Source: an uncultured Candidatus Binatia bacterium
Lineage (GTDB): Bacteria; Desulfobacterota; Binatia; Bin18
DNA: 64,000 bases
Direction: 5' to 3'
NCBI GenBank assembly: GCA_965242795.1
Contig: OZ251505.1
Location: 431,133 to 495,132 of the forward strand
This document shows, one piece after another, positions 2,113-62,545 of this stretch; position 1 is the stretch's first letter; the number at the start of each line of letters is the position of its first letter. The position numbers were made by a program, and so were the translations under genes. The notes beneath the pieces are model-generated. The model worked only from the letters and a program-made list of their open reading frames with translations. It did no database searches and was not told the DNA's origin.

Positions 2113-4134
2113 ATGCTGCAACTCAGGAACGTCAGCCTGTCGTTCGGCGGGCAACAAGTGTTTCGCGGGCTGAATTGGCAGATCCGCAAGGGTGCCCGGA
2201 TCGGGCTGGTGGGGCCCAACGGCGCCGGCAAGACGACGCTGTTCCGCATCCTGATCGGACGGCAGGAACCCGACGCCGGACAAGTGCAGCGTGCCCGCGG
2301 GCTGCGTGTCGGCTATCTGCCCCAGGAAGGCATTGAGGTATCGGGACGAAACGTGTTCGCGGAGACACGCGCGGCGTTGCCGGAGTTACCTGCGTTGCAG
2401 GCCGAACTGGCGACGCTCGAGGCGGGGCTGCATGAGGAAGCGGACGGCCTGGAGGCACAAGCCGAACTGCTGGCGCGCTACGGCGAAGTGCAGCATCGCA
2501 TCGAGGCGTTGGACGGGTTTCGCGCCGACACCGCGGTTGCCACGGTGTTGAACGGCCTGGGCTTTCACCAAGCACAGTTCACGGCGCGCACCGACACGCT
2601 GAGCGGCGGTTGGCAGGCGCGCATCGCACTGGCCAAGCTGTTGCTCCAACGGCCCGACGTCCTACTGCTGGACGAGCCGACGAACCATCTCGACCTGGAT
2701 TCGCTGCTTTGGCTGGAGTCCTACCTGCGCGGCTTTCCGGGCAGTCTGGTCATCGTGTCGCACGACCGCGCGTTTCTGGACCGCATGGTGAACCGCGTCG
2801 CCGCGCTGCACGACGCAGGGCTGACCGAGTACGTCGGCGGCTACGCGGCGTTCGAGCGCGTGTTCGAAGAACGCTTGGAGGCGCACCGCAAGGCGTACGC
2901 GGCCCAACAAGACGAAATCGAGCGCATGACGCGCTTCATCAACACGTTCCGCTACAACGCCCGCAAGGCGTCGCAGGTGCAGAGCCGCGTCAAGCAACTC
3001 GAAAAGATGGATCGGCTGCCGCCGCCGCAGGCTGCGCCCAAGGGCGTCCGGTTCGGGTTTCCCGCGGCACCGCGCAGCGGGCGCCGCATGCTCGAACTCG
3101 ACGGCGCAATCAAATGCTACGGCGCGCTGCACGTCTTCGCGGGAATCGATCTGGTCGTCGAGCGCGGCGACCGCGTGGCCCTGGTCGGCGTCAACGGGGC
3201 TGGCAAGTCCACGTTGAGCCGCATTCTGGCCGGGGTGGAAGCGCCCAGCGCGGGCAGCCGCCGCGTCGGTCATCAGGTCGTGCTCGACTATTACGCCCAA
3301 CAACAGGCCGAGCGTTTGGATGGACGGAACACGGTCTATGACGAGGTGGCGCGCGAGGCCGCGACCGACGTCGTGCCCCAGTTGCGTACGCTGCTGGGGG
3401 CGTTTCTGTTTTCGGGCGATACGGTCGATAAACCCGTCCGCGTGTTGAGCGGCGGCGAGAAGAGCCGCTTGGCGCTCGCGAAAATGTTGCTGCAAGCGTC
3501 CAACCTGCTCATTCTGGACGAGCCGACCAACCATCTCGACATCCGCACCAAGGACGTCCTCAAGCAGGCGTTGTTGCAATACGCCGGCGCCTATCTGGTC
3601 GTCTCGCACGACCGCGACTTCTTGAGCGGGTTGGTAACCAAGGTGATGGAACTGCGCAACGGCGCGTGCCACGTGTATCCGGGGACGTTCGACGAATTTC
3701 TGGATCGCAAGGCGCGCGAAACCGCCCAAGCCGGTCGGACCGCGCAAGGCAACGGTTCCGTCCCCGGTCAAGCCGGGACTTCGACCGCTCCCGTGACAGA
3801 TGTCGAGGATCCCGCTGTGGAGGCGACGCTCGTCGCGATTCGGCACGCCGGCCGTCTCAAGAAAAAAGGCAAACGCGCCTACCAGCAACACAAGGCGGCA
3901 CGCGCCGCCCGGCAACAGCGGGCCAAGAGGGTCGCCGCTGCCGAACGGCGCATTACCGCACTGGAAGACGAAATTAAGGAACTGGAACGCACGCTGGCCA
4001 GTCAGGAAACCTTCAGCGATGCCGAGCGCGCCCGTGAGGCCGCGGCCCGGCACGAACGGCTCCGCCGGCAACTCGACGAGCAGTACGCGGTCTGGACGGA
4101 GTTGGCAGGCGAGACGACCGATGAATCCGCCTGA
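2113..4134 (+). CDS. ABC-F family ATPase (tandem ATP-binding cassettes, Uup/EttA/YheS-like) with a C-terminal coiled-coil tail
   Basis: Two Walker A motifs (GPNGAGKTT, GVNGAGKST), two LSGG signatures, two Walker B (LLLDEPTNHLD, LILDEPTNHLD) and no TM domain. The tail is rich in K/R/E/A. Confidence 0.9.
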   Translation: MLQLRNVSLSFGGQQVFRGLNWQIRKGARIGLVGPNGAGKTTLFRILIGRQEPDAGQVQRARGLRVGYLPQEGIEVSGRNVFAETRAALPELPALQAELATLEAGLHEEADGLEAQAELLARYGEVQHRIEALDGFRADTAVATVLNGLGFHQAQFTARTDTLSGGWQARIALAKLLLQRPDVLLLDEPTNHLDLDSLLWLESYLRGFPGSLVIVSHDRAFLDRMVNRVAALHDAGLTEYVGGYAAFERVFEERLEAHRKAYAAQQDEIERMTRFINTFRYNARKASQVQSRVKQLEKMDRLPPPQAAPKGVRFGFPAAPRSGRRMLELDGAIKCYGALHVFAGIDLVVERGDRVALVGVNGAGKSTLSRILAGVEAPSAGSRRVGHQVVLDYYAQQQAERLDGRNTVYDEVAREAATDVVPQLRTLLGAFLFSGDTVDKPVRVLSGGEKSRLALAKMLLQASNLLILDEPTNHLDIRTKDVLKQALLQYAGAYLVVSHDRDFLSGLVTKVMELRNGACHVYPGTFDEFLDRKARETAQAGRTAQGNGSVPGQAGTSTAPVTDVEDPAVEATLVAIRHAGRLKKKGKRAYQQHKAARAARQQRAKRVAAAERRITALEDEIKELERTLASQETFSDAERAREAAARHERLRRQLDEQYAVWTELAGETTDESA

Positions 4135-4173
4135 ATCGACGACCCGCCCGACCGGAAACGAGGAGACACCACC

Positions 4174-5157
4174 ATGCGTATCGGATTAGGACTGCCGCCC
4201 ACCGGACACCGGTTCGAAGTCTATAAGGACGTCGCGCAGCAGGCCGAGGCCGGCGGCTTCGAGAGCCTGTGGTGCGGCGAAGCGTGGGGCACCGAGACGA
4301 GTACCCTCGTCACCGCGTTTCTGGCGTGGACACGGCGGATGTCCGTGGGCACCGGGATCATCTCGCTGTATCTGCGCCCGCCTACGCTGACCGCAATGCA
4401 GGCGGCGAGCATGGACCTGGTCGCCCCGGGCCGGGCGCGGCTGGGCATCGGCGTGAGCACGCGGAACATCAACGCATTTCACGGCATCCCGTGGGACCAT
4501 CCGGTCGCCCGCACGCGCGAATACGTGGACGTGCTACGCCGTGTGCTGGCGGGCGAGCGGGTCACTCACGCCGGACGCTTCTACCGGCCGCAGGGCTTTC
4601 GGCTGAGCGCCACGTTGTCACAGAAAGTGCCGATCTACCTGGCCGCGGTGAACCCACGCATGTTGCGCCTAGCGGGTGAGATTGCCGACGGCGTGTTGCT
4701 CGCGTGGCTGCCGGCGCGCCAAGTGGCCGCGTCGGTCGCCGAAATCGCCAAAGGGGCGGCGCGCGCCGGGCGCCGCCTCGCGGACATCGATATCGGCTGT
4801 TACGTCCACACCTTGGTCAATCCCGACCGTGAACGCGCGCTGGCGCAACTCCGCCACGTCCTGGTCGGCTATTGCCAGGCCAACACCTACATTCAGGGAT
4901 TTCGGCGTTTCGGCTATGGCGACGTGCTGGACGAGGTCCTGGCCCGTTGGCAAGCCGGAGACCGGGCCGGTGCGGAGCAGGCGATTCCCGACCGCATGGT
5001 GGAGGAACTGTTCGTCTTCGGCGCGCCGGCGGACTGCCATGCCCAACTCGCCCGCTTCGTCGATGCCGGCGTCCAGCATCCGATCGTGGCCGCGCCGCCC
5101 ACCAGCCAACTTACGGCCGATGACCTGCACGCGATGGTCGCCGCGTTCGCGCAATAG
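4174..5157 (+). CDS. Luciferase-like monooxygenase (LLM) family, probable F420/flavin-dependent oxidoreductase
   Basis: GGAGA RBS; 327 aa with an LLM-like TIM-barrel pattern (GFESLWCGEAWG...PIYLAAVNPRMLRLAGEIADGVLL). Confidence 0.8.
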   Translation: MRIGLGLPPTGHRFEVYKDVAQQAEAGGFESLWCGEAWGTETSTLVTAFLAWTRRMSVGTGIISLYLRPPTLTAMQAASMDLVAPGRARLGIGVSTRNINAFHGIPWDHPVARTREYVDVLRRVLAGERVTHAGRFYRPQGFRLSATLSQKVPIYLAAVNPRMLRLAGEIADGVLLAWLPARQVAASVAEIAKGAARAGRRLADIDIGCYVHTLVNPDRERALAQLRHVLVGYCQANTYIQGFRRFGYGDVLDEVLARWQAGDRAGAEQAIPDRMVEELFVFGAPADCHAQLARFVDAGVQHPIVAAPPTSQLTADDLHAMVAAFAQ

Positions 5158-55568: not shown

Positions 55569-57038
55569 ATGCCGGAAGCAAGTTCCCGCCGCCGTCTGAC
55601 ACAGACCGAAGCCGCCTTTCTGTATGCCGAAACACCACAGACGCCCATGCACGTCGGAGGCTGCGGACTGTACGCCGGCACCCTGTCCACAACCACGCTG
55701 TGCGACCTGATCGCCAGCCGGCTCGACCGCCTGCCCCAATACCGCCGGAAAGCCGTCTTCGCACCGCTGAACTTGGCGCACCCGACCTGGGAAGACGACC
55801 CGGACTTCGCCCTCTCCCGCCATATCGACGAAGTGGAACTCCCGGCCCCGGCCGACGACCGCGTCATTTCCCAAGTCTGCGGCCAACTCTTTTCGACCCC
55901 GCTCGACCGCGACCGGCCGTTGTGGAAACTCACCCTCATCCACGGCCGTCCGGATGGAGACAGCATGGTGTTGGCTCGTGTCCACCAAGCCATGCTGGAA
56001 GGGGTGTCGGGGATCGACCTCATGCTGACCCTGCACGATTTCACGTCCCGGCCGGCGCCCGGGGCGCCGGCCGCGGGCGCGTGGCGGCCCGAGGCCACGC
56101 CGGACGCCCTGTCGCTCCTGCAAGAGGCGGTGCAAGACCGGATCGCCGAAGTCGTGCAGTGGTGGACCGACAACAGCTTCCAGTTCTTCCGTGCGCCCAA
56201 CCAGACGTCGTACGCCAAACGAGTGGTGAACGGCTGCCTGAGCCTCTCCACGACGCTGTTGCAACCCACCCCCGGCACGCCGTTCAACGCCACGCTGTCG
56301 GGCCGGCGCGAGATCGTATGGCTGGAACTGTCGTTCGCCGACGCCCGGTTCATCCGCTCGGTGCTGCGGGGCAGCGTGGACGACGTCGTCCTCGCGATCA
56401 TCGCCGGCGGCATCGGACACTATCTGCGTTCCAAGGGCGTGGACACGGACGGCCTGGAGTTACGCGCCGCCCTCCCCGTCAACCTGAAACGTCACGAGCC
56501 CCGCCACCGCCGCGGCACTCGGACCGGCGACCGGACCTCGACCATGTTGGTCCCGCTGTACGTCGGGATCACCGACCCGTTGCTCCGGTTTTCGGCTCAT
56601 CAGGCCGCGGTCGTGGAACTCCGCGAACAGGATCAGGCCGGGACGTTTCACGCGCTCAAACACTTGACGACGTGCATTCCGCCGGCGTGGCAGGCCGTCG
56701 CCGGTCGGCCGCTGTCGGCCAGCACGCTGGCGAATACCGTGGTCATGAATATCCCCGGGCCGCAAATTCCGCTCTACCTCGCCGGACACAAACGGCACGC
56801 CTTTTTTCCGATGGGACCCCTCGGCGGGCGGGTCGGCCTGTTCCACGCGGTGGCGAGCTACAACAAGAAGCTATCCATCGGCGTCACGCTCGACCCGCGT
56901 CTCGTGCCGGACGGCCAAGCGTACGTCGATTGCCTGCGGGAGTCGTATCGGGAACTGCACGGGGCCGCGGTCAGATTCTCGCGGCGCTCGGCCCGCGGCA
57001 GGACGGCGACGGCCGCCTCCCGCCCGCACGCCGCGTAA
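55569..57038 (+). CDS. Wax ester synthase/diacylglycerol acyltransferase (WS/DGAT) family O-acyltransferase with a non-canonical active-site motif
   Basis: N-terminal LTQTEAAFLYAETPQTPMHVGG and the WS/DGAT fold. The position of the HHxxxDG motif reads VHQAMLEGVSG. Confidence 0.75.
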   Translation: MPEASSRRRLTQTEAAFLYAETPQTPMHVGGCGLYAGTLSTTTLCDLIASRLDRLPQYRRKAVFAPLNLAHPTWEDDPDFALSRHIDEVELPAPADDRVISQVCGQLFSTPLDRDRPLWKLTLIHGRPDGDSMVLARVHQAMLEGVSGIDLMLTLHDFTSRPAPGAPAAGAWRPEATPDALSLLQEAVQDRIAEVVQWWTDNSFQFFRAPNQTSYAKRVVNGCLSLSTTLLQPTPGTPFNATLSGRREIVWLELSFADARFIRSVLRGSVDDVVLAIIAGGIGHYLRSKGVDTDGLELRAALPVNLKRHEPRHRRGTRTGDRTSTMLVPLYVGITDPLLRFSAHQAAVVELREQDQAGTFHALKHLTTCIPPAWQAVAGRPLSASTLANTVVMNIPGPQIPLYLAGHKRHAFFPMGPLGGRVGLFHAVASYNKKLSIGVTLDPRLVPDGQAYVDCLRESYRELHGAAVRFSRRSARGRTATAASRPHAA

Positions 57039-57060
57039 CCCGCGCTCGTGTCGGGCGGGT

Positions 57061-57648
57061 TCAGGCGGAGGGGACGTGACCCGACAGACCGGTCACGTCG
57101 TAAGCCATGATAATCAGGTCGCGGGTCTGTCCGGACCGGTCGATCACGAAGTCGGCCAACAGCGCTTCGGTCTGAAAGCCGAGGCGCGTGAACAGCGCCT
57201 GTGCTCCAGGCTGATCGGCCATCATTTGCGCGACGACCTTGCTCAGTTCGAGGTCGTGCGCGACCTCGACGATCTCCTCGGCCAGGACGCGCCCGAGTCC
57301 GACCCGGCGGTATTCGGGCGCGATGAGGATGCGCGTTTCGCCCAGGTGGCGCTGCCACATCACGGTGTTGAGGTGCAGAATGGCGTAGCCGGCGAACGTC
57401 TCGCCCGCCTCGGCAATCACGGTCACGGTCTTGCGGGCTTCCAGGTTCCGCACCCATTCCTTGACGATTGCCGGGTCGGTGATGTCGATGCGCAGATGCA
57501 ACAGGTCGTCCGCGGGCAGGCTGTTGGCGAAACTGACGATGCGGTCCGCGTCGAACGCGGTCATCAGCCGCAGCGTCACGAGCGTCCCGTTTCCCAACGT
57601 CACGGTGTGTGGATACGGTCGCTCCAGATACATCCGCGCTTCAGCCAT
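57061..57648 (-). CDS. GNAT-family N-acetyltransferase
   Basis: RRVGLGRVLAEEIVEVAHD matches the acetyl-CoA binding motif A context. Start at MAEARMY, with an AAGGAG RBS. Confidence 0.75.
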   Translation of the reverse strand: MAEARMYLERPYPHTVTLGNGTLVTLRLMTAFDADRIVSFANSLPADDLLHLRIDITDPAIVKEWVRNLEARKTVTVIAEAGETFAGYAILHLNTVMWQRHLGETRILIAPEYRRVGLGRVLAEEIVEVAHDLELSKVVAQMMADQPGAQALFTRLGFQTEALLADFVIDRSGQTRDLIIMAYDVTGLSGHVPSA

Positions 57649-57975
57649 GTACGCTCCTTGTGTCGGGGTTCTCGAACGAGGGCACGGAGTCGGCGTCCAA
57701 CTCTCCGCCCGTTCGGCGAGTGCTAACAGAAGTGAGCGGAGCATCTAGCACACATGGAGAACCGGGAAAACTCCTTGCAGGCCGCAACCGTAGGGGCGAA
57801 AAATTTTTCGCCCGTCCTCCGACAGCGCGGGGCTACGTGACCGCAACGATCGACCCAGAACCACGATCCGGCCGCGGGCGCGGTTTTCTTCCATCCGTCT
57901 TTTTGGTACGCTTGCAAAAGTTCCCATCCCCTGCAAGCAAGGCATATTCCCGACACCCTCTCACGAGCAGACACC

Positions 57976-58809
57976 ATGCCGGACGACGGATCGCTGCCGC
58001 ACGTGCTGCCCACCGCGGACGAAACCGATTCCTTCAGCACCCTGTTCTGGCAGCTCGGCGCGGCGTACCCGGACTCGCTCCACCAATTGGGCATTCTCTT
58101 ACGCGACGAGGTGTACCGCCGCCCGCCGGGACCCAAGGCGTCGGGTCAGCCGGTGCTGCTGATTCCCGGCTTTCTGGCCGGCGACTGGACCTTGCAGGTC
58201 CTGGCCGGTTGGCTGACCCGGATGGGCTACAACCCCTATTTCTCCGGGCTGGACTGGAACGTGGATTGTCCGAATCGGACCGGGCATTTGTTGCGCTGGC
58301 GCGTCAATCAGATCATCCGCGAGACCGGCCACCCGCTGATCGTCTTCGGCCACAGCCTCGGCGGGATGCTGGCACGGTTCCTGGGCGCCAATTTCCCCGA
58401 CCAGGTGCGGTATGTCGTCACGCTCGGCTCGCCGATTCAACGCACGTCGCAGGTCAGTCCGCTCGTGGTGTTCGCCTCGCGCGTGCTGCAACCGTTCCGG
58501 CGTTGGCGCGGCGACCTGCCGCCGGACTGCGGCACGCTGGACTGCAACTGCCACTTCAACCGCAGCGTCATTTCCCCCCTGCCCGAGGAAGTCGGGTTCA
58601 CCGCGGTGTTCTCCAAGCAGGACGAGGTCGTCGAGTGGCGGGCGTGTCTCGACCCGCAACGCGAGAGCCGCGAAGTGACCGGACGGCATATCGGCTTGAT
58701 CGTGAATGCCCAGGCGTACCGCGTGCTGGCCGAGGTCTTGGCGCGGCTGCACGTCCGGGAGCGCACCCACGACGTCACGCTGGCCGCGCCGGCGCGGCTC
58801 GACGCCTGA
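57976..58809 (+). CDS. Alpha/beta hydrolase, lipase/esterase-like (GHSLGG)
   Basis: VLLIPGFLAGD...IVFGHSLGGMLARF is a PGAP1/lipase class-2-like pattern. Confidence 0.7.
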   Translation: MPDDGSLPHVLPTADETDSFSTLFWQLGAAYPDSLHQLGILLRDEVYRRPPGPKASGQPVLLIPGFLAGDWTLQVLAGWLTRMGYNPYFSGLDWNVDCPNRTGHLLRWRVNQIIRETGHPLIVFGHSLGGMLARFLGANFPDQVRYVVTLGSPIQRTSQVSPLVVFASRVLQPFRRWRGDLPPDCGTLDCNCHFNRSVISPLPEEVGFTAVFSKQDEVVEWRACLDPQRESREVTGRHIGLIVNAQAYRVLAEVLARLHVRERTHDVTLAAPARLDA

Positions 58810-58836
58810 ACGGCGCCGGCGCGCGCAAAAACCCGG

Positions 58837-59274
58837 CTATTCCGGCGGGGCCGTCATGAGTTCCTTCGCCAAGTCGTTCTTGGCGATGACGTGCTTGCGG
58901 TACAGATCGGTCTCCCACTCCGCCTCGTGGGTTCCGTCCTTGTCGGTATAACCGAAGCGCACCCAGCGACCGCTCGGCGCCTCGAAGATATTGAAGTAAT
59001 TGCTCAGCTCGTCGTTGAGGCGGTCGCCCTCCAGCAGCCCGGCCTCCCACGGCCCTATGCTCCACGGATTGCCTTCACGACCCGCGTTGGCGCGGCGTTT
59101 TTCGATGTTGGAGATGACGCTGAACATCTCGCCTTCGGGGGTATGGCCTTTGATGATCTGAATCGCCTGCTCTTCTTTCGCGCCCATCGGTCGTTCGCCG
59201 CACGCCCAGAGAAACAGACATCCGACCGCGACCAGACCGGCCACCCGCTTGTGATACGCGTATGCTTGTCTCAT
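58837..59274 (-). CDS. Hypothetical lipoprotein
   Basis: GAGGAGG RBS and a lipobox, MRQAYAYHKRVAGLVAVGCLFLWAC. Confidence 0.5.
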   Translation of the reverse strand: MRQAYAYHKRVAGLVAVGCLFLWACGERPMGAKEEQAIQIIKGHTPEGEMFSVISNIEKRRANAGREGNPWSIGPWEAGLLEGDRLNDELSNYFNIFEAPSGRWVRFGYTDKDGTHEAEWETDLYRKHVIAKNDLAKELMTAPPE

Positions 59275-59550
59275 CCTGCCTCCTCGTGTTGCAGCCTGCG
59301 GGCGGATCATGGAATCGGCGCCCGGCTGCACGGCCAATGTTGGGGCGGAATCCTACAATGAAATACGGAACGGGTCCATCACGACCGCGGCGTCTTTCGG
59401 CTCCCTCCGGTCCCCGAGCTCGTCGAAACGGGCGAAGGATCTATTGCTGCCGGGCTGCTTGCTTTTTTGTCACCTGGGTGACACATAGGCCATTCAAATC
59501 TTTGGACCGACGCCTCTTGCGTCCATGACTCGAACTCGAGCGACACTTCT

Positions 59551-60264
59551 ATGGTGCGCACTCCGATCCTGAACGTCGCGACGGTCCGCCGACTCAAAGC
59601 CTTTTCCTGGGCGACCGACCGACAGGTCGAACGGCTGCTGAGTCACATGCGGCTGCAATACGTCGAAAAACGGACCGTCCTCTTCAACGAGGGCGTTCCT
59701 TCGGACTCGCTCTATCTGCTCGTTTCCGGGGTCGCCAAGCTGTCCCTACGCAGTCCGGACGACGAGCGCGTCCTGGTGAGCCTGGTCGCTCCCGGCGAAC
59801 TGTTCGGGATCACTTCGCTGATGCCGGGGATGCACCGGGCCTTCCGCTCCGAGGCGTTCAGCGATTGCTGGGTCGGGGCGGTCCGCCCCGAAGTCTTCGT
59901 GACGACGCTGCTCGATTGCCCGTTCGCCGAATTCAGCGCCATGATGGAAGGGACGGTCGGCCGCTGGTTCGCCCTGCTCTACCGCTATACCCGCTTCCAG
60001 AGTTCCAGCCTCAGACAGAAACTCGCTCTGGCCCTCCTGGAATTGGCCCGGAAGTTCGGCGTGCGAGACGCGCGCGGCACGCTGTTGATTCTGCGGCTCA
60101 CTCACGAAGATTTGGCCGACCTGGTCGGTGCCTCGCGCCAGAAGGTCACCGAGCACATGAAGGAACTCGAACGGCAGCAGGTGCTGTTGCGCGACCGGCG
60201 CAAGCTGATCGTGCACCCCGACCGCCTGCGGGAAACCGCCGGCTTGCCGCCGGACGAGAAATGA
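59551..60264 (+). CDS. Crp/Fnr-family transcriptional regulator (cNMP-binding domain plus C-terminal HTH)
   Basis: TVLFNEGVPSDSLYLLVSGVAKL...GELFGITSL then LTHEDLADLVGASRQKVTEHMKEL. Confidence 0.85.
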   Translation: MVRTPILNVATVRRLKAFSWATDRQVERLLSHMRLQYVEKRTVLFNEGVPSDSLYLLVSGVAKLSLRSPDDERVLVSLVAPGELFGITSLMPGMHRAFRSEAFSDCWVGAVRPEVFVTTLLDCPFAEFSAMMEGTVGRWFALLYRYTRFQSSSLRQKLALALLELARKFGVRDARGTLLILRLTHEDLADLVGASRQKVTEHMKELERQQVLLRDRRKLIVHPDRLRETAGLPPDEK

Positions 60265-60333
60265 GAGGGGAGAGAAGGGGGCGGCTGAGGACATCGAGCG
60301 GGGAGAGATGCCCTCAGCCTGGGGAAAGGGAAA

Positions 60334-60699
60334 TTATTCAGCGGCGGCTTGACTCGGGCTCTCCGGCGCTGCCTCGGCCGCGGCCTCGATCTGCCAGATC
60401 CGGCGGGCCATGGCGGTCGAAGAGTCGATCACCTGAAGCGCGAACGCGCGTTGCGTCTCGAACATGGACGCAAGCGGCGTGTCCTTCGCCCACTCGGTCG
60501 CCTTCTCGTTCATCTCGACGGCTTGGCGCGCCCACTTCTCTCCCGAATCGAGCGACTTGGCCGCCATTTCCTTGACCGGCTCGCCGAGGGGAACCTTCAC
60601 GTCGCCGAACATCTTCACGAACGGATTGTTCATGAATGGATTGGTGTCCGCGTCGAACATCTTGCCGAACGTCCCGCAACTCCATGCGTTGTCTGCCAT
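60334..60699 (-). CDS. Phasin-family (PHA-granule-associated) protein, putative
   Basis: 121 aa, helical and Ala/Glu-rich, with a phasin-like N-terminus (FGDVKVP...ARQAVEMNEKATEWAKDTP). Confidence 0.45.
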   Translation of the reverse strand: MADNAWSCGTFGKMFDADTNPFMNNPFVKMFGDVKVPLGEPVKEMAAKSLDSGEKWARQAVEMNEKATEWAKDTPLASMFETQRAFALQVIDSSTAMARRIWQIEAAAEAAPESPSQAAAE

Positions 60700-60762
60700 G
60701 AGAAACCTCCCGTGTTTCCGGGCGACGTCCGTTGCGACGTGCGCCGTGTTTGCGAATGTCGG

Positions 60763-60794
60763 AATGCTAACAACTGTCGCTAACTATTGCAAGC
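60763..60794. promoter_or_regulatory. Candidate operator motif AATGCTAACAACTGTCGCTAACTATTGCAAGC upstream of the phasin gene
   Basis: 26/32 identical to 61215-61246, which sits upstream of the adjacent XRE regulator gene. Contains a tandem GCTAAC half-site. Confidence 0.5.
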
Positions 60795-60840
60795 ATCCGA
60801 AGAACGGAAATTTGTCTCCAAGGTGACGGGAATGCCGTTT

Positions 60841-61209
60841 TCAGGCCGAGGCGCTCTTTTCGTTGACTTGGCGGAACGAGCGGTACATGTCGATCAGCAT
60901 CTCGCGCTGGCGGGCGGAGAGTTCCGGGTCGTGCAGGACGGCTTTCACCACGTCGCTCTCTTCAGCGTCCTGGGGGTCGAGGATCCCCGCCTGGGTGTAC
61001 AGCGTTTCGGCTGAAATACGGAGCCCTTTGGCGAGGGATTGCAGAATCATGCTGCTCGGCACGCGCAGCCCGCGTTCGATCTGGCTCAGGTAGGGATTGG
61101 AAATGCCGCACAATTCCGCCAACTGGCGCACCGAGAGTTGCGACAACTCGCGCTGACGCCTGATGAACTCGCCGAGCGTGACGTACGGGTCGGGACGTTT
61201 CCGGGTCAT
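60841..61209 (-). CDS. XRE-family HTH transcriptional regulator
   Basis: LGEFIRRQRELSQLSVRQLAELCGISNPYLSQIERGLRVPS is HTH_3. Confidence 0.75.
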   Translation of the reverse strand: MTRKRPDPYVTLGEFIRRQRELSQLSVRQLAELCGISNPYLSQIERGLRVPSSMILQSLAKGLRISAETLYTQAGILDPQDAEESDVVKAVLHDPELSARQREMLIDMYRSFRQVNEKSASA

Positions 61210-61214
61210 GCCCG

Positions 61215-61246
61215 AACGCTAACAAAAATCGCTAACTCGTGCAAGC
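61215..61246. promoter_or_regulatory. Second copy of the GCTAACAA-N3-TCGCTAACT-N3-GCAAGC motif, upstream of the XRE regulator gene (autoregulation candidate)
   Basis: AACGCTAACAAAAATCGCTAACTCGTGCAAGC, starting 6 bp beyond the ATG of 60841-61209 on the minus strand. Confidence 0.5.
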
Positions 61247-61315
61247 GCGGCGCAAACAGGATGGGCATGCGGGGAGGAACGGGGATGCGGGGAGTTGCGA
61301 GTCGGGGGGAATCGG

Positions 61316-61346
61316 TTGACACCCGCGGACGAGCGGGATGTATGAT
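61316..61346 (+). promoter_or_regulatory. Sigma70-like promoter TTGACA-N19-TATGAT for the MetE-like gene
   Basis: TTGACA at 61316-61321 and TATGAT at 61341-61346, ~30 nt upstream of the GGGAGG RBS and ATG at 61376. The spacer holds a CCCGCGGACGAGCGGG palindrome. Confidence 0.4.
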
Positions 61347-61375
61347 GCGCCAGCCACATCGAACGGGAGGACCCA

Positions 61376-62545
61376 ATGTTCGTTGCCACGAAGGATACCC
61401 TGCTGCCCACGGCGATGGTCGGTTCGTTTCCCAAGCCGAGCTGGTTCACCGAGAGCCTCCGCGGCCGGCCGTTCAAGGTCGCAATGGGCGATTCGCTGTA
61501 CCGCGAGCAGTACATCGACGCGGTCGCCTGCTACGTGAACGAGCAGGATCAGGCCGGCCTCGACATCTTCACCGACGGGGACACGCGCTTCGACCTGGAA
61601 GTCGGCGGCCGATCCTGGTTCTTCTATACGATCGAGCGGCTGAACGGCATCGGCGGTTACCGCGACTCTTCGCACTTTCTGGACTACGCGGACATCAAGC
61701 CCGGCCACATCCTGTACGAAGTGCAGGAAGCCTACCACCCGCCCGCGGTGACGGATGACGTCACGCGCGGCCCACTCCACTTCACCGCGATCTGGAAGAC
61801 CGCCCAGAAGATGACACGCAAACCCGTGAAATTCGGGTCCATCAGCGCCACCTGTCTGCCGATGATGCTGTGGAACGAACATTACCGGAGCGACCACGAA
61901 CTCGTCATGGATCTGGCCGCGGCGCTGAACGAGGAGTTGCGCGAGTTGGCCGACGCCGGCTGTCCGGTCATTCAGATCGAGGAGCCACCGCACCACTTCG
62001 CCTGCTGCACCGACCCGCCGGCGACCGACAAGGAACTCCAGAATTACACCGACGCCTTCAACCGCGAGGTGCAAGGCGTCGAGACCGAAATCTGGGCGCA
62101 CACCTGCTGGGGCAATCCCAACCAGCAGAGCTTCTACTGGGAACGGCCCAGCTACGAGCGGTCGTTGCCGCACCTGCTCCAACTCGACGCCGACGTGCTC
62201 ACGTTGGAAGGCGCCAGCAACAACGGCCGCGACCTGCCCTTGCTGAAGCACTCCAAGACCGACAAGAAGATCGCCATCGGCGTCATCAACCACACGGTCA
62301 CCACGGTCGAGCCGCCGGAGATGATCGCCGACCTGATCCGCCGGGCGCTGGAATACGTGCCGCCCGAACGGCTGATCGTGACGGCCGACTGCGGCTTCGG
62401 GCGCGAGGGGCTGTCGCGGCGGATCGCGTTCTACAAGTGCGTTGCCCTCGTGCAAGGGACGAACATGGTTCGCCGGGAACTCGGCCTGCCCGAGGCGGAG
62501 ATTCGGGCGGCCGACCCGCGCTACGCTTTCCGACAGGTGGATTAG
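61376..62545 (+). CDS. Cobalamin-independent methionine synthase (MetE) C-terminal-domain family protein
   Basis: 389 aa with MVGSFPKPSWF and CGFGREGLSRRIAFYKCVALVQGT (the Zn-binding Cys context of the MetE_C/UROD-like fold). Confidence 0.8.
   Translation: MFVATKDTLLPTAMVGSFPKPSWFTESLRGRPFKVAMGDSLYREQYIDAVACYVNEQDQAGLDIFTDGDTRFDLEVGGRSWFFYTIERLNGIGGYRDSSHFLDYADIKPGHILYEVQEAYHPPAVTDDVTRGPLHFTAIWKTAQKMTRKPVKFGSISATCLPMMLWNEHYRSDHELVMDLAAALNEELRELADAGCPVIQIEEPPHHFACCTDPPATDKELQNYTDAFNREVQGVETEIWAHTCWGNPNQQSFYWERPSYERSLPHLLQLDADVLTLEGASNNGRDLPLLKHSKTDKKIAIGVINHTVTTVEPPEMIADLIRRALEYVPPERLIVTADCGFGREGLSRRIAFYKCVALVQGTNMVRRELGLPEAEIRAADPRYAFRQVD

Follow-up and report, generated by a model that had tools for sequence, protein, structure and literature searches.

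A conserved 32-bp repeat as the probable promoter-operator shared by an MLDSR-like XRE regulator gene and a phasin-like gene in Candidatus Binatia

In a stretch of 64,000 nucleotides from an uncultured Candidatus Binatia bacterium (assembly GCA_965242795.1, contig OZ251505.1, forward-strand positions 431,133 to 495,132), called the window here, a 32-bp sequence occurs twice, once in front of a gene for an XRE-family regulator and once in front of the neighbouring gene for a small phasin-like protein. The question raised by this locus is what the repeated sequence does and which protein reads it. The comparative analysis described below makes it probable that each copy is a sigma-70-type promoter with a built-in operator for the adjacent XRE regulator, which would in this way control its own gene and the phasin-like gene. 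The two genes and the two copies, named site A and site B, are listed first, with scores in bits from the position weight matrix described below.

60841..61209, minus strand: XRE-family helix-turn-helix (HTH) regulator, MLDSR-like, 122 amino acids (aa), Pfam HTH_3 and HTH_31
60334..60699, minus strand: phasin-like small helical protein, 121 aa, ribosome-binding site GGGAGG, follows the XRE gene in about 40 Binatia loci
61215..61246, minus strand: site A, putative composite promoter/operator of the XRE gene, reads GCTTGCACGAGTTAGCGATTTTTGTTAGCGTT, 25.0 bits, kept in 40/40 loci; core GCTTGC-N4-GTTAGC at 61231-61246, -35 TTGCAC at 61239-61244, -10 TAGCGT at 61216-61221
60763..60794, minus strand: site B, putative composite promoter/operator of the phasin-like gene, reads GCTTGCAATAGTTAGCGACAGTTGTTAGCATT, 29.3 bits; core at 60779-60794, -35 TTGCAA at 60787-60792, -10 TAGCAT at 60764-60769

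Copy 1, AATGCTAACAACTGTCGCTAACTATTGCAAGC (60763-60794), and copy 2, AACGCTAACAAAAATCGCTAACTCGTGCAAGC (61215-61246), are identical at 26 of 32 positions, and in a repeat search the similarity reaches over 39 nt (60756-60794 and 61208-61246; 31/39, 79% identity). Sequences, coordinates and identity are exactly those given in the initial annotation, which had also placed one copy before the phasin gene and the other before the start of the regulator. This placement was borne out, with copy 1 lying 64-95 nt before the phasin-like ATG (60699, minus strand) and copy 2 ending 6 nt upstream of the XRE ATG (61209, minus strand). With up to three mismatches allowed, the degenerate consensus GCTAACAANNNTCGCTAACTNNTGCAAGC matches the 64 kb at these two places only, and it gave no match in 100 dinucleotide-preserving shuffles. 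The window holds nine GCTAAC hexamers, four of them inside the two copies. A position weight matrix for the 16-mer core was built from 61 unique orthologous sites; copy 1 scores 29.3 bits and copy 2 scores 25.0 bits, against a best score of 14.9 bits in 20 random windows, and the two copies are the only strong matrix sites in the window.

Relatives were scanned with one genome per species, yielding 56 loci, of which 43 carry close homologues (68-95% identity). Both sites were found at the same positions in all of the 40 Candidatus Binatia loci examined, site A directly upstream of the XRE ATG and site B 35-55 nt beyond the XRE stop codon. In about 40 loci the gene downstream encodes a member of one family of small proteins. 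Across the 40 loci examined, the columns of GCTTGCAA.AGTTAGC and TAGCAT carry nearly the maximum of information and those of the flanks almost none. At site B, GCTTGCAA[A/T]AGTTAGC and TAGCAT are nearly invariant.

The regulator has a characterised counterpart in Actinobacteria. A BLASTP comparison with P0127, the MLDSR orthologue of R. opacus, gave the XRE protein 50% identity and 74% similarity over 111 aa (residues 12-122, E 5e-37), and the homology to the MLDSR (RHA1_ro02105) family reaches beyond the HTH domain. The recognition helix SNPYLSQIERG.R.PS and the C-terminal RQ...Y.SF are invariant in a 17-sequence alignment of Binatia and Actinobacteria. The search for Rhodococcus and Nocardia proteins was seeded with peptides from the published cloning primers of MLDSR and two gap-filling stretches modelled on actinobacterial relatives; the seed retrieved real proteins from both genera, and the peptides translated from the primers are collinear with the XRE protein of the window. 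An AlphaFold2 model of the XRE protein has a five-helix HTH domain followed by C-terminal helices, with a predicted local distance difference test score (pLDDT) of 76. Pfam assigns it HTH_3, HTH_31 and HTH_19 only, with no PhaR-family domains, and NCBIfam has a specific model for neither the XRE nor the phasin-like protein, the XRE protein matching generic XRE models only, all below cut-off. A search of the PDB with the XRE profile likewise returned generic HTH domains only (E 3e-9 to 1e-6). Judged by its sequence, the XRE protein is a Binatia member of the MLDSR family.

MLDSR (ro02105) is an XRE-type protein that regulates the bicistronic mldsr-mlds operon in Rhodococcus jostii RHA1, in which mlds encodes the major protein of the lipid droplets, MLDS (Zhang et al., 2017, Nat Commun 8:15979; PMC5504291). 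Electrophoretic mobility shift assay (EMSA) and surface plasmon resonance demonstrated that it binds two adjacent motifs upstream of its operon; motif 1, GTGCTTGCAATTGCTAGCAC, is bound with a dissociation constant of 175 nM, acts as the operator and mediates repression of transcription in vitro (PMC5504291). The consensus box was given as GNT(T/A)GCTNNTGCTANC, and lipid droplets sequester MLDSR from DNA (PMC5504291). The initial annotation had considered an XRE-type regulator unusual in such a role; the MLDSR/MLDS pair is a published precedent for it, with a sequestration logic like that of PhaR.

The boxes of the two systems are nearly the same. The core of copy 1, GCTTGCAATAGTTAGC, and the core of MLDSR motif 1, GCTTGCAATTGCTAGC, agree at 14 of 16 positions. 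The cores GCTTGCAATAGTTAGC and GCTTGCACGAGTTAGC each fit 10 of the 13 specified positions of the MLDSR consensus box, and the core GCTTGCAAGTGCTAGC, found at some Binatia loci, fits 12 of 13. The Nocardia sequence GCTTGCAAGAGCTAGC is identical to the commonest Binatia site A at 15 of 16 positions. In both R. opacus and Nocardia the regulator gene is preceded by GCTAAC-N5-GCTTGC-N4-GCTAGCAC, along with TTGCAA-N17-TAGGCT in the former and TTGCAA-N17-TAGAAT in the latter. The 14/16 operator match, the homology to MLDSR and the positional conservation in 40/40 loci together strongly support the proposal of the initial annotation that a shared operator serves both autoregulation and an adjacent structural gene.

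On the coding (minus) strand the motif reads GCTTGCA-N3-GTTAGCG-N6-GTTAGC(A/G)T. It contains a -35-like hexamer (TTGCAC or TTGCAA), a spacer of 17 nt and a -10-like hexamer (TAGCGT or TAGCAT, both fitting TANNNT), and a 16-bp imperfect palindrome, GCTTGC-N4-GTTAGC, spans the -35 hexamer and the first half of the spacer. The tandem GCTAACA/GCTAACT half-site, which the initial annotation had pointed out in both copies, resolves into the right arm of this palindrome and the -10 region. By analogy with MLDSR, the recognition unit would instead be the inverted repeat GCTAAC-N4-GCAAGC (plus strand), and since the distal GCTAAC coincides with the -10 hexamer, the 32-mer can be read as promoter and operator together.

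The geometry of the two sites suggests where transcription would begin. At site A, TTGCAC-N17-TAGCGT, each hexamer of which agrees with the consensus at just 4 of 6 positions, stops 6 nt short of the ATG. In 38 of the 40 loci GCTTGC stands 37-39 nt from the ATG, which puts the A of the ATG about 7 nt past the -10 hexamer, a geometry suggestive of leaderless transcripts. We infer that transcription from site A starts at the A of the ATG at 61209 and gives a leaderless regulator mRNA, while a start near 60757 is predicted for site B, leaving a 5' untranslated region (UTR) of about 58 nt. Several assemblies start the XRE gene further upstream, giving proteins of 134-159 aa (L060:7001-7423; P0022-P0037, 134-140 aa). 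These starts are probably mis-annotated because the ATG is conserved and the conservation is at the DNA level; they would place the operator/promoter inside the open reading frame (ORF).

The box was also searched in metagenomes with the pattern GCTTGCAANNGTTAGC, which gave at least 120 matching stretches. This pattern specifies 14 bases, so many chance matches are expected in a collection of that size. An XRE homologue starts within 300 nt downstream on the same strand in 32 of the at least 120 matches, and TANNNT stands exactly 17 nt after TTGCAA in 35 of them, where about 2 would be expected by chance; both properties coincide in 27, that is, in 27 of the 32 XRE-linked matches. The linkage to XRE genes and the 17-nt spacing tie the box to the MLDSR-type family, with its left arm consistently doubling as the -35. 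The remaining 8 promoter-like matches have no XRE homologue downstream; in 3 of these 8 (L088, L095, L127) an ORF with an ATG starts 37-38 nt past the box, and in two more one starts from a nearby alternative start codon. The small proteins encoded there have a segment ...AYV.VG.GVLA.QQ.QVRR... in common (like D.AYV.VG.GVLA.QQ.QVRR), and Pfam detected no significant family in these small proteins behind the same operator. They may be further coat-protein partners of MLDSR-type regulators. At L088, L095, L127, L151 and L152, the sequence preceding the small-protein ORFs has the form GTGCTTGCAA..GTTAGC-N-TANNNT.

Several observations weigh against reading each copy as a promoter with a built-in operator for the XRE protein of a lipid-body module. 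The -35 and -10 hexamers each match the E. coli consensus at 4 of 6 positions, and the -10 of site A is TAGCAC, without the final T, in about a third of the loci. A promoter/terminator scan flagged no promoter in the region; this silence is explained by the 4/6 match of each hexamer and, given the comparative geometry, was not counted against a promoter. The Rhodococcus authors assigned promoter activity to motif 2 and not to the motif-1 region that is read here as the -35, and MLDSR acts both positively and negatively, so that the sign of regulation here could be either (PMC5504291). On the side of the partner, the phasin-like protein of the window has neither a significant Pfam match nor an NCBIfam match, and alignment of the Binatia family profile with R. 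opacus MLDS (L057:3000-3809) gave an hhalign probability of 0.1%. Because the window protein is without a Pfam match and unrelated to MLDS, the link to lipid bodies rests on weak Phasin_2 matches in orthologues and on synteny with a gene for a wax ester synthase / diacylglycerol acyltransferase (WS/DGAT).

The sign of regulation is also the point on which the nearest rival explanation turns. In binding both sites, the XRE protein might serve chiefly to activate, or might have a dual action like MLDSR, by recruiting RNA polymerase to weak promoters or stabilising it there. MLDSR is an activator when the ratio of protein to DNA is low and a repressor at high occupancy, and MLDS falls when MLDSR is knocked out as well as when it is overexpressed (PMC5504291); hexamers at 4/6 that the promoter scan passed over fit such a role. 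Yet the box shares positions with the -35 and the spacer, as a further GTTAGC does with the -10, an arrangement typical of occlusion, and we consider activation as the main mode rather unlikely. A different explanation takes the block as a promoter only, used for example by a dedicated alternative sigma factor, with an XRE protein that does not bind and a coincidental likeness to the MLDSR box. The conserved stretch indeed spans exactly -35 to -10, at a fixed distance from the ATG. However, the GTTAGC box in the spacer, which polymerase does not read, is conserved as strongly as the hexamers; the same 16-mer is the EMSA-proven operator of a 50%-identical regulator and is linked to XRE homologues across metagenomes (the 32 of at least 120 matches above), and no conserved sigma-54 -24 element lies upstream. 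A promoter without an operator is, on this evidence, very improbable. A sigma-54 reading, with GCTTGCA as the -12 element, was rejected, as a conserved TGGCAC 5 nt upstream was found in no locus.

The motif could also be bound by the product of the adjacent Crp/Fnr gene, a conserved neighbour, in place of the XRE protein. A better and separate candidate for that protein is GTCAC-N4-GTGAC, found in front of the Crp/Fnr gene itself and, at about -62, in the phasin-like promoter, whereas GCTTGC-N4-GYTAGC accompanies XRE genes in Actinobacteria as well, where the loci read have no Crp/Fnr neighbour; we give this alternative hardly any weight. That strong copies in 64 kb number just two might finally suggest chance similarity, or a functionless relic of a local duplication or mobile repeat. 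Shuffled sequence gives no matches, however, and the position is kept in 40 genomes (XRE identity 78-96%) while the flanks diverge, which makes such an origin next to incredible; a mobile repeat or duplication was rejected on these grounds.

The explanation that we favour, a promoter with a built-in XRE operator at each site, can be set out as a mechanism. The XRE protein, as a dimer or oligomer, would bind GCTTGC-N4-GTTAGC at its own and at the phasin-like promoter. Copy 2 would drive the leaderless regulator mRNA, making the circuit autoregulatory, and copy 1 would drive the phasin-like gene through the 5' UTR of about 58 nt. Bound XRE protein would occlude RNA polymerase, with repression as the default action, and weak activation might also occur at low occupancy, by analogy with MLDSR. 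The surface of a lipid inclusion would probably titrate the regulator off the DNA, as MLDSR and PhaR suggest, and synthesis of the coat protein would then track the amount of stored lipid. Weaker boxes may draw a hydrolase gene and a GNAT gene into a local regulon, and a Crp/Fnr-type regulator may add a physiological input through a palindrome at about -62 of the phasin-like promoter.

How well the partner deserves its name was examined with its orthologues. Phasin_2 (PF09361) was matched by 11 of 20 orthologues at E <= 0.05 (best 2.6e-6), one of which (L002) exceeds the gathering score with 26.9 bits against a cut-off of 24.9, and precomputed PF09361 annotations are present on 3 of 6 database homologues. 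AlphaFold2 predicted a long helical hairpin with low confidence (pLDDT 61); Foldseek of this model found generic helical hairpins only, all at E > 1 and uninformative, and a PDB sequence search with the phasin-like profile gave nothing below E 0.3. A relationship to MLDS was considered and rejected on the hhalign probability of 0.1%. The initial annotation had called the gene a phasin gene outright; the family matches of the orthologues speak for this, while the window protein itself stays unmatched, and "phasin-like" is a reasonable but weak label. In more distant relatives (XRE identity 68-72%; metagenome-assembled genomes (MAGs) labelled Binatia, Verrucomicrobiia and Vicinamibacterales) the regulator gene is followed by one for a larger tryptophan-rich protein of 163-186 aa (L040:2941-3501, L041:2940-3500, L042:3013-3504). 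Each of these genes is preceded by a box of the GCTTGCAA/GGTTGCAA type, and the proteins have weak, below-threshold matches to the N-terminus of PHA_synth_III_E and to Phasin_2.

The two genes open a cluster with the conserved order XRE, phasin-like, Crp/Fnr, 145-aa lipoprotein-like, PGAP1-like alpha/beta-hydrolase, GNAT and WS/DGAT (window 55569-61209; L059, L060, L061; XRE identity 82-95%). The further features of this cluster are as follows.

59551..60264, plus strand: Crp/Fnr-family regulator, conserved cluster member, Pfam cNMP_binding and HTH_Crp_2, synteny
57976..58809, plus strand: alpha/beta-hydrolase (PGAP1-like), putative target, Pfam and synteny
57061..57648, minus strand: GNAT acetyltransferase, putative target, Pfam; likely start 57648 after AAGGAG, the listed ORF reaching 57744
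55569..57038, plus strand: WS/DGAT, last of the seven genes, WS_DGAT_cat 3.6e-42 and WS_DGAT_C 5e-24
57722..57737, minus strand: variant box GCTCACTTCTGTTAGC = GCTCAC-TTCT-GTTAGC, 74-89 nt upstream of the GNAT start 57648
57910..57941, plus strand: fourth box GCTTGCAAAAGTTCCC-N7-GCAAGCAAG, 35-66 nt upstream of the hydrolase start 57976
60814..60827, no strand assigned: palindrome GTCAC-N4-GAGAC, one mismatch to GTCAC-N4-GTGAC, between the XRE stop and site B
59469..59482, no strand assigned: perfect palindrome GTCACCTGGGTGAC, 69 nt upstream of the Crp/Fnr start 59551

The conserved order ending in WS/DGAT points to neutral-lipid storage, and the cluster suggests a storage module for wax ester or triacylglycerol, instead of or besides polyhydroxyalkanoate (PHA). 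A literature search on lipid storage in Binatota returned nothing specific. Two weaker boxes lie inside the cluster. The initial annotation had noted a looser third match upstream of the GNAT gene (57718-57752). It is weak by matrix, with only 6.2 bits, and its core is conserved in three relatives. This core fits GCTNRC-N4-GYTAGC, which has 3 matches in the window against 0.01 expected. When the intergenic region between the hydrolase and GNAT genes is aligned with those of L059, L060 and L061, just two conserved islands stand out, one of which is this box; the L061 copy of the box is a perfect palindrome, GCTAACTTCTGTTAGC. Dismissal of the site as a chance match on its 6.2 bits was dropped after these pattern statistics and the orthologous alignment. 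The GNAT genes called in relatives encode 193-195 aa. The fourth box, absent from the initial annotation, has a core GCTTGCAAAAGTTCCC (57910-57925) that lies 51-66 nt upstream of the hydrolase gene and scores 15.7 bits, borderline against the random maximum of 14.9; GCTTGCAANNGTT has 2 matches against 0.03 expected. In relatives this box scores 15.4 (L059), 23.7 (L060) and 11.0 bits (L061), and it forms a conserved island in alignment A1. The GNAT and hydrolase boxes are plausible weaker operators, and all four boxes of the 64-kb window lie inside the 5-kb cluster.

A separate element recurs next to the Crp/Fnr gene and the phasin-like promoter. GTCAC-N4-GTGAC is found upstream of site B in 38 of the 40 loci, and its centre lies at -60.5 to -63.5 from the predicted phasin-like start in 37 of the 40, at about -63.5 in the window and, in one locus, at -73.5, a helical turn farther from the start. 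Almost every locus that reaches as far as the Crp/Fnr gene has a second copy in front of that gene. The palindrome appears twice per locus in L001-L043, at about 2873-2884 and about 4120-4285. These palindromes are candidate operators of the Crp/Fnr protein, with a geometry like that of class I activator sites of CRP/FNR type at the phasin-like promoter and putative autoregulation at the Crp/Fnr gene; the half-site GTCAC corresponds to no characterised consensus. In many loci the copy before site B is a hairpin with a T-run, which could also serve as the terminator of the XRE gene.

Some variation between lineages was observed around these elements. A short GC-rich hairpin lies about 10-35 nt into the predicted phasin-like 5' UTR (window 60721-60745, minus strand) and recurs in L001-L037. 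Its stems vary by lineage (CCGAC/GTCGG, CGGCGC/GCGCCG, GGACGCAC/GTGTGTCC), a difference in sequence that suggests a structurally conserved stem-loop. It has no Rfam match, and a search of 57500-61500 at E <= 1 returned no RNA family. In one Binatia sublineage (L010, L013, L018, L027, L031, L037) the phasin 5' UTR carries extra GCAAGC boxes about 15-30 nt after site B, reading GCAAGCAAGCA in three of these loci and present as single variants in the others, which may be additional downstream half-sites. Site A has the variant form GCTTGCA-N3-(G/A)CAAGC(A/G) in the same six loci. Locus L039 holds an XRE paralogue (L039:2912-3466, 73% identical) without a box, followed by a lipoprotein-like gene that resembles the 145-aa gene of the cluster (window 58837-59337) and has ...EG..(F/Y)SVISNIE... 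in common with it, an arrangement that hints at a second related module. Four contigs with typical Binatia-type XRE/phasin loci (L015, L028, L029, L034) bear the MAG names 'Klebsiella pneumoniae' or 'uncultured Enterobacteriaceae' in their records, names that very likely reflect taxonomic mislabelling or binning errors.

A broader interpretation is offered tentatively and is, in our estimate, more doubtful than the local model. MLDSR-type XRE proteins and GCTTGC-N4-GYTAGC might form an ancient, cross-phylum sensor of lipid-inclusion surfaces whose coat proteins have been swapped, and in Binatia this sensor might run a lipid-droplet regulon next to WS/DGAT, with a phasin-family coat on wax-ester/triacylglycerol bodies and not on PHA granules. 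On this view the operator and the DNA-binding half of the regulator have hardly changed between Actinobacteria and Binatota, and the role of the coat would be filled in Actinobacteria by the apolipoprotein-like MLDS, in Binatia by a Phasin_2-like protein and elsewhere by larger proteins with a weak, below-threshold likeness to the PhaE N-terminus; the Binatia regulon would comprise the coat protein, a hydrolase or lipase and GNAT. The locus itself connects the Binatota, an uncultured phylum of global distribution, with MLDSR, the one bacterial lipid-droplet regulator that has been studied mechanistically, and it illustrates that a transcription factor and its operator can remain near-identical between phyla while the controlled structural gene is replaced. 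For organisms that cannot be cultured, the local model yields predictions of binding sites at base-pair level, two transcription starts (one leaderless), a candidate four-promoter regulon inside a WS/DGAT cluster and a second input of Crp/Fnr type. The 16-mer together with an XRE gene may also serve as a search key for metagenomic coat proteins of lipid inclusions that are too divergent for homology searches.

Among known systems, a literature search combining XRE and phasin gave nothing relevant, its matches being to crystallographic 'phasing'. The best PDB matches are the XRE proteins ClgR, SinR, DdrO and P22 C2, whose solved structures have in common with the window protein the HTH_3 fold and dimer-on-palindrome binding; the match covers the HTH domain only, and they differ in a dissimilar C-terminal half and in other operators and regulons. 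In polyhydroxybutyrate producers such as Cupriavidus necator and Paracoccus, the repressor PhaR (PhaF/ApdA) has sites at its own promoter and at that of the phasin PhaP, and the storage granule is presumed to release it. The Binatia locus resembles PhaR-PhaP in the arrangement of operator copies at regulator and phasin(-like) promoters, a likeness of sequence arrangement only, and in a partner with phasin-family similarity; it differs in an XRE HTH_3 regulator without PhaR domains, an unrelated operator and a neighbouring enzyme that is WS/DGAT and not PHA synthase. Rv0474 of Mycobacterium tuberculosis adjoins hbhA and belongs to the same actinobacterial family as MLDSR. Copper-responsive autoregulation and repression of rpoB have been reported for it (PMC10961391). 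It is likewise a small autoregulating XRE regulator; its reported function, copper-responsive rpoB repression, is different.

The closest system is MLDSR-MLDS of R. jostii RHA1. Both have a full-length homologous XRE regulator, nearly the same 16-bp box upstream of its own gene, TTGCAA inside that box 17 nt from TANNNT, and a regulator gene directly upstream of the gene for a small helical protein, whose coat role is known for MLDS and putative here. The Binatia partner, however, is not homologous to MLDS and is a putative distant Phasin_2 relative. The two genes overlap in one operon in Rhodococcus and Nocardia, whereas in Binatia they lie 141 nt apart, each with its own putative promoter-operator copy. 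The Binatia regulator mRNA is apparently leaderless, compared with about 55 nt from box to ATG in Rhodococcus, and the sites are arranged as GCTTGC-N4-GTTAGC-N7-GTTAGC in Binatia and as GCTAGC-N5-GCTAAC-N5-GCTTGC-N4-GCTAGC in Rhodococcus. The Binatia protein has 122 aa against 168 aa and is without the N- and C-terminal extensions, and the Binatia locus, in the phylum Binatota, has extra boxes and a candidate Crp/Fnr site in a WS/DGAT cluster. Measured against MLDSR-MLDS, the regulator and operator are thus the same, and what appears to be new is the other phylum, the non-homologous partner, the duplicated promoter-operators, the predicted leaderless regulator mRNA and the additional sites in the WS/DGAT cluster.

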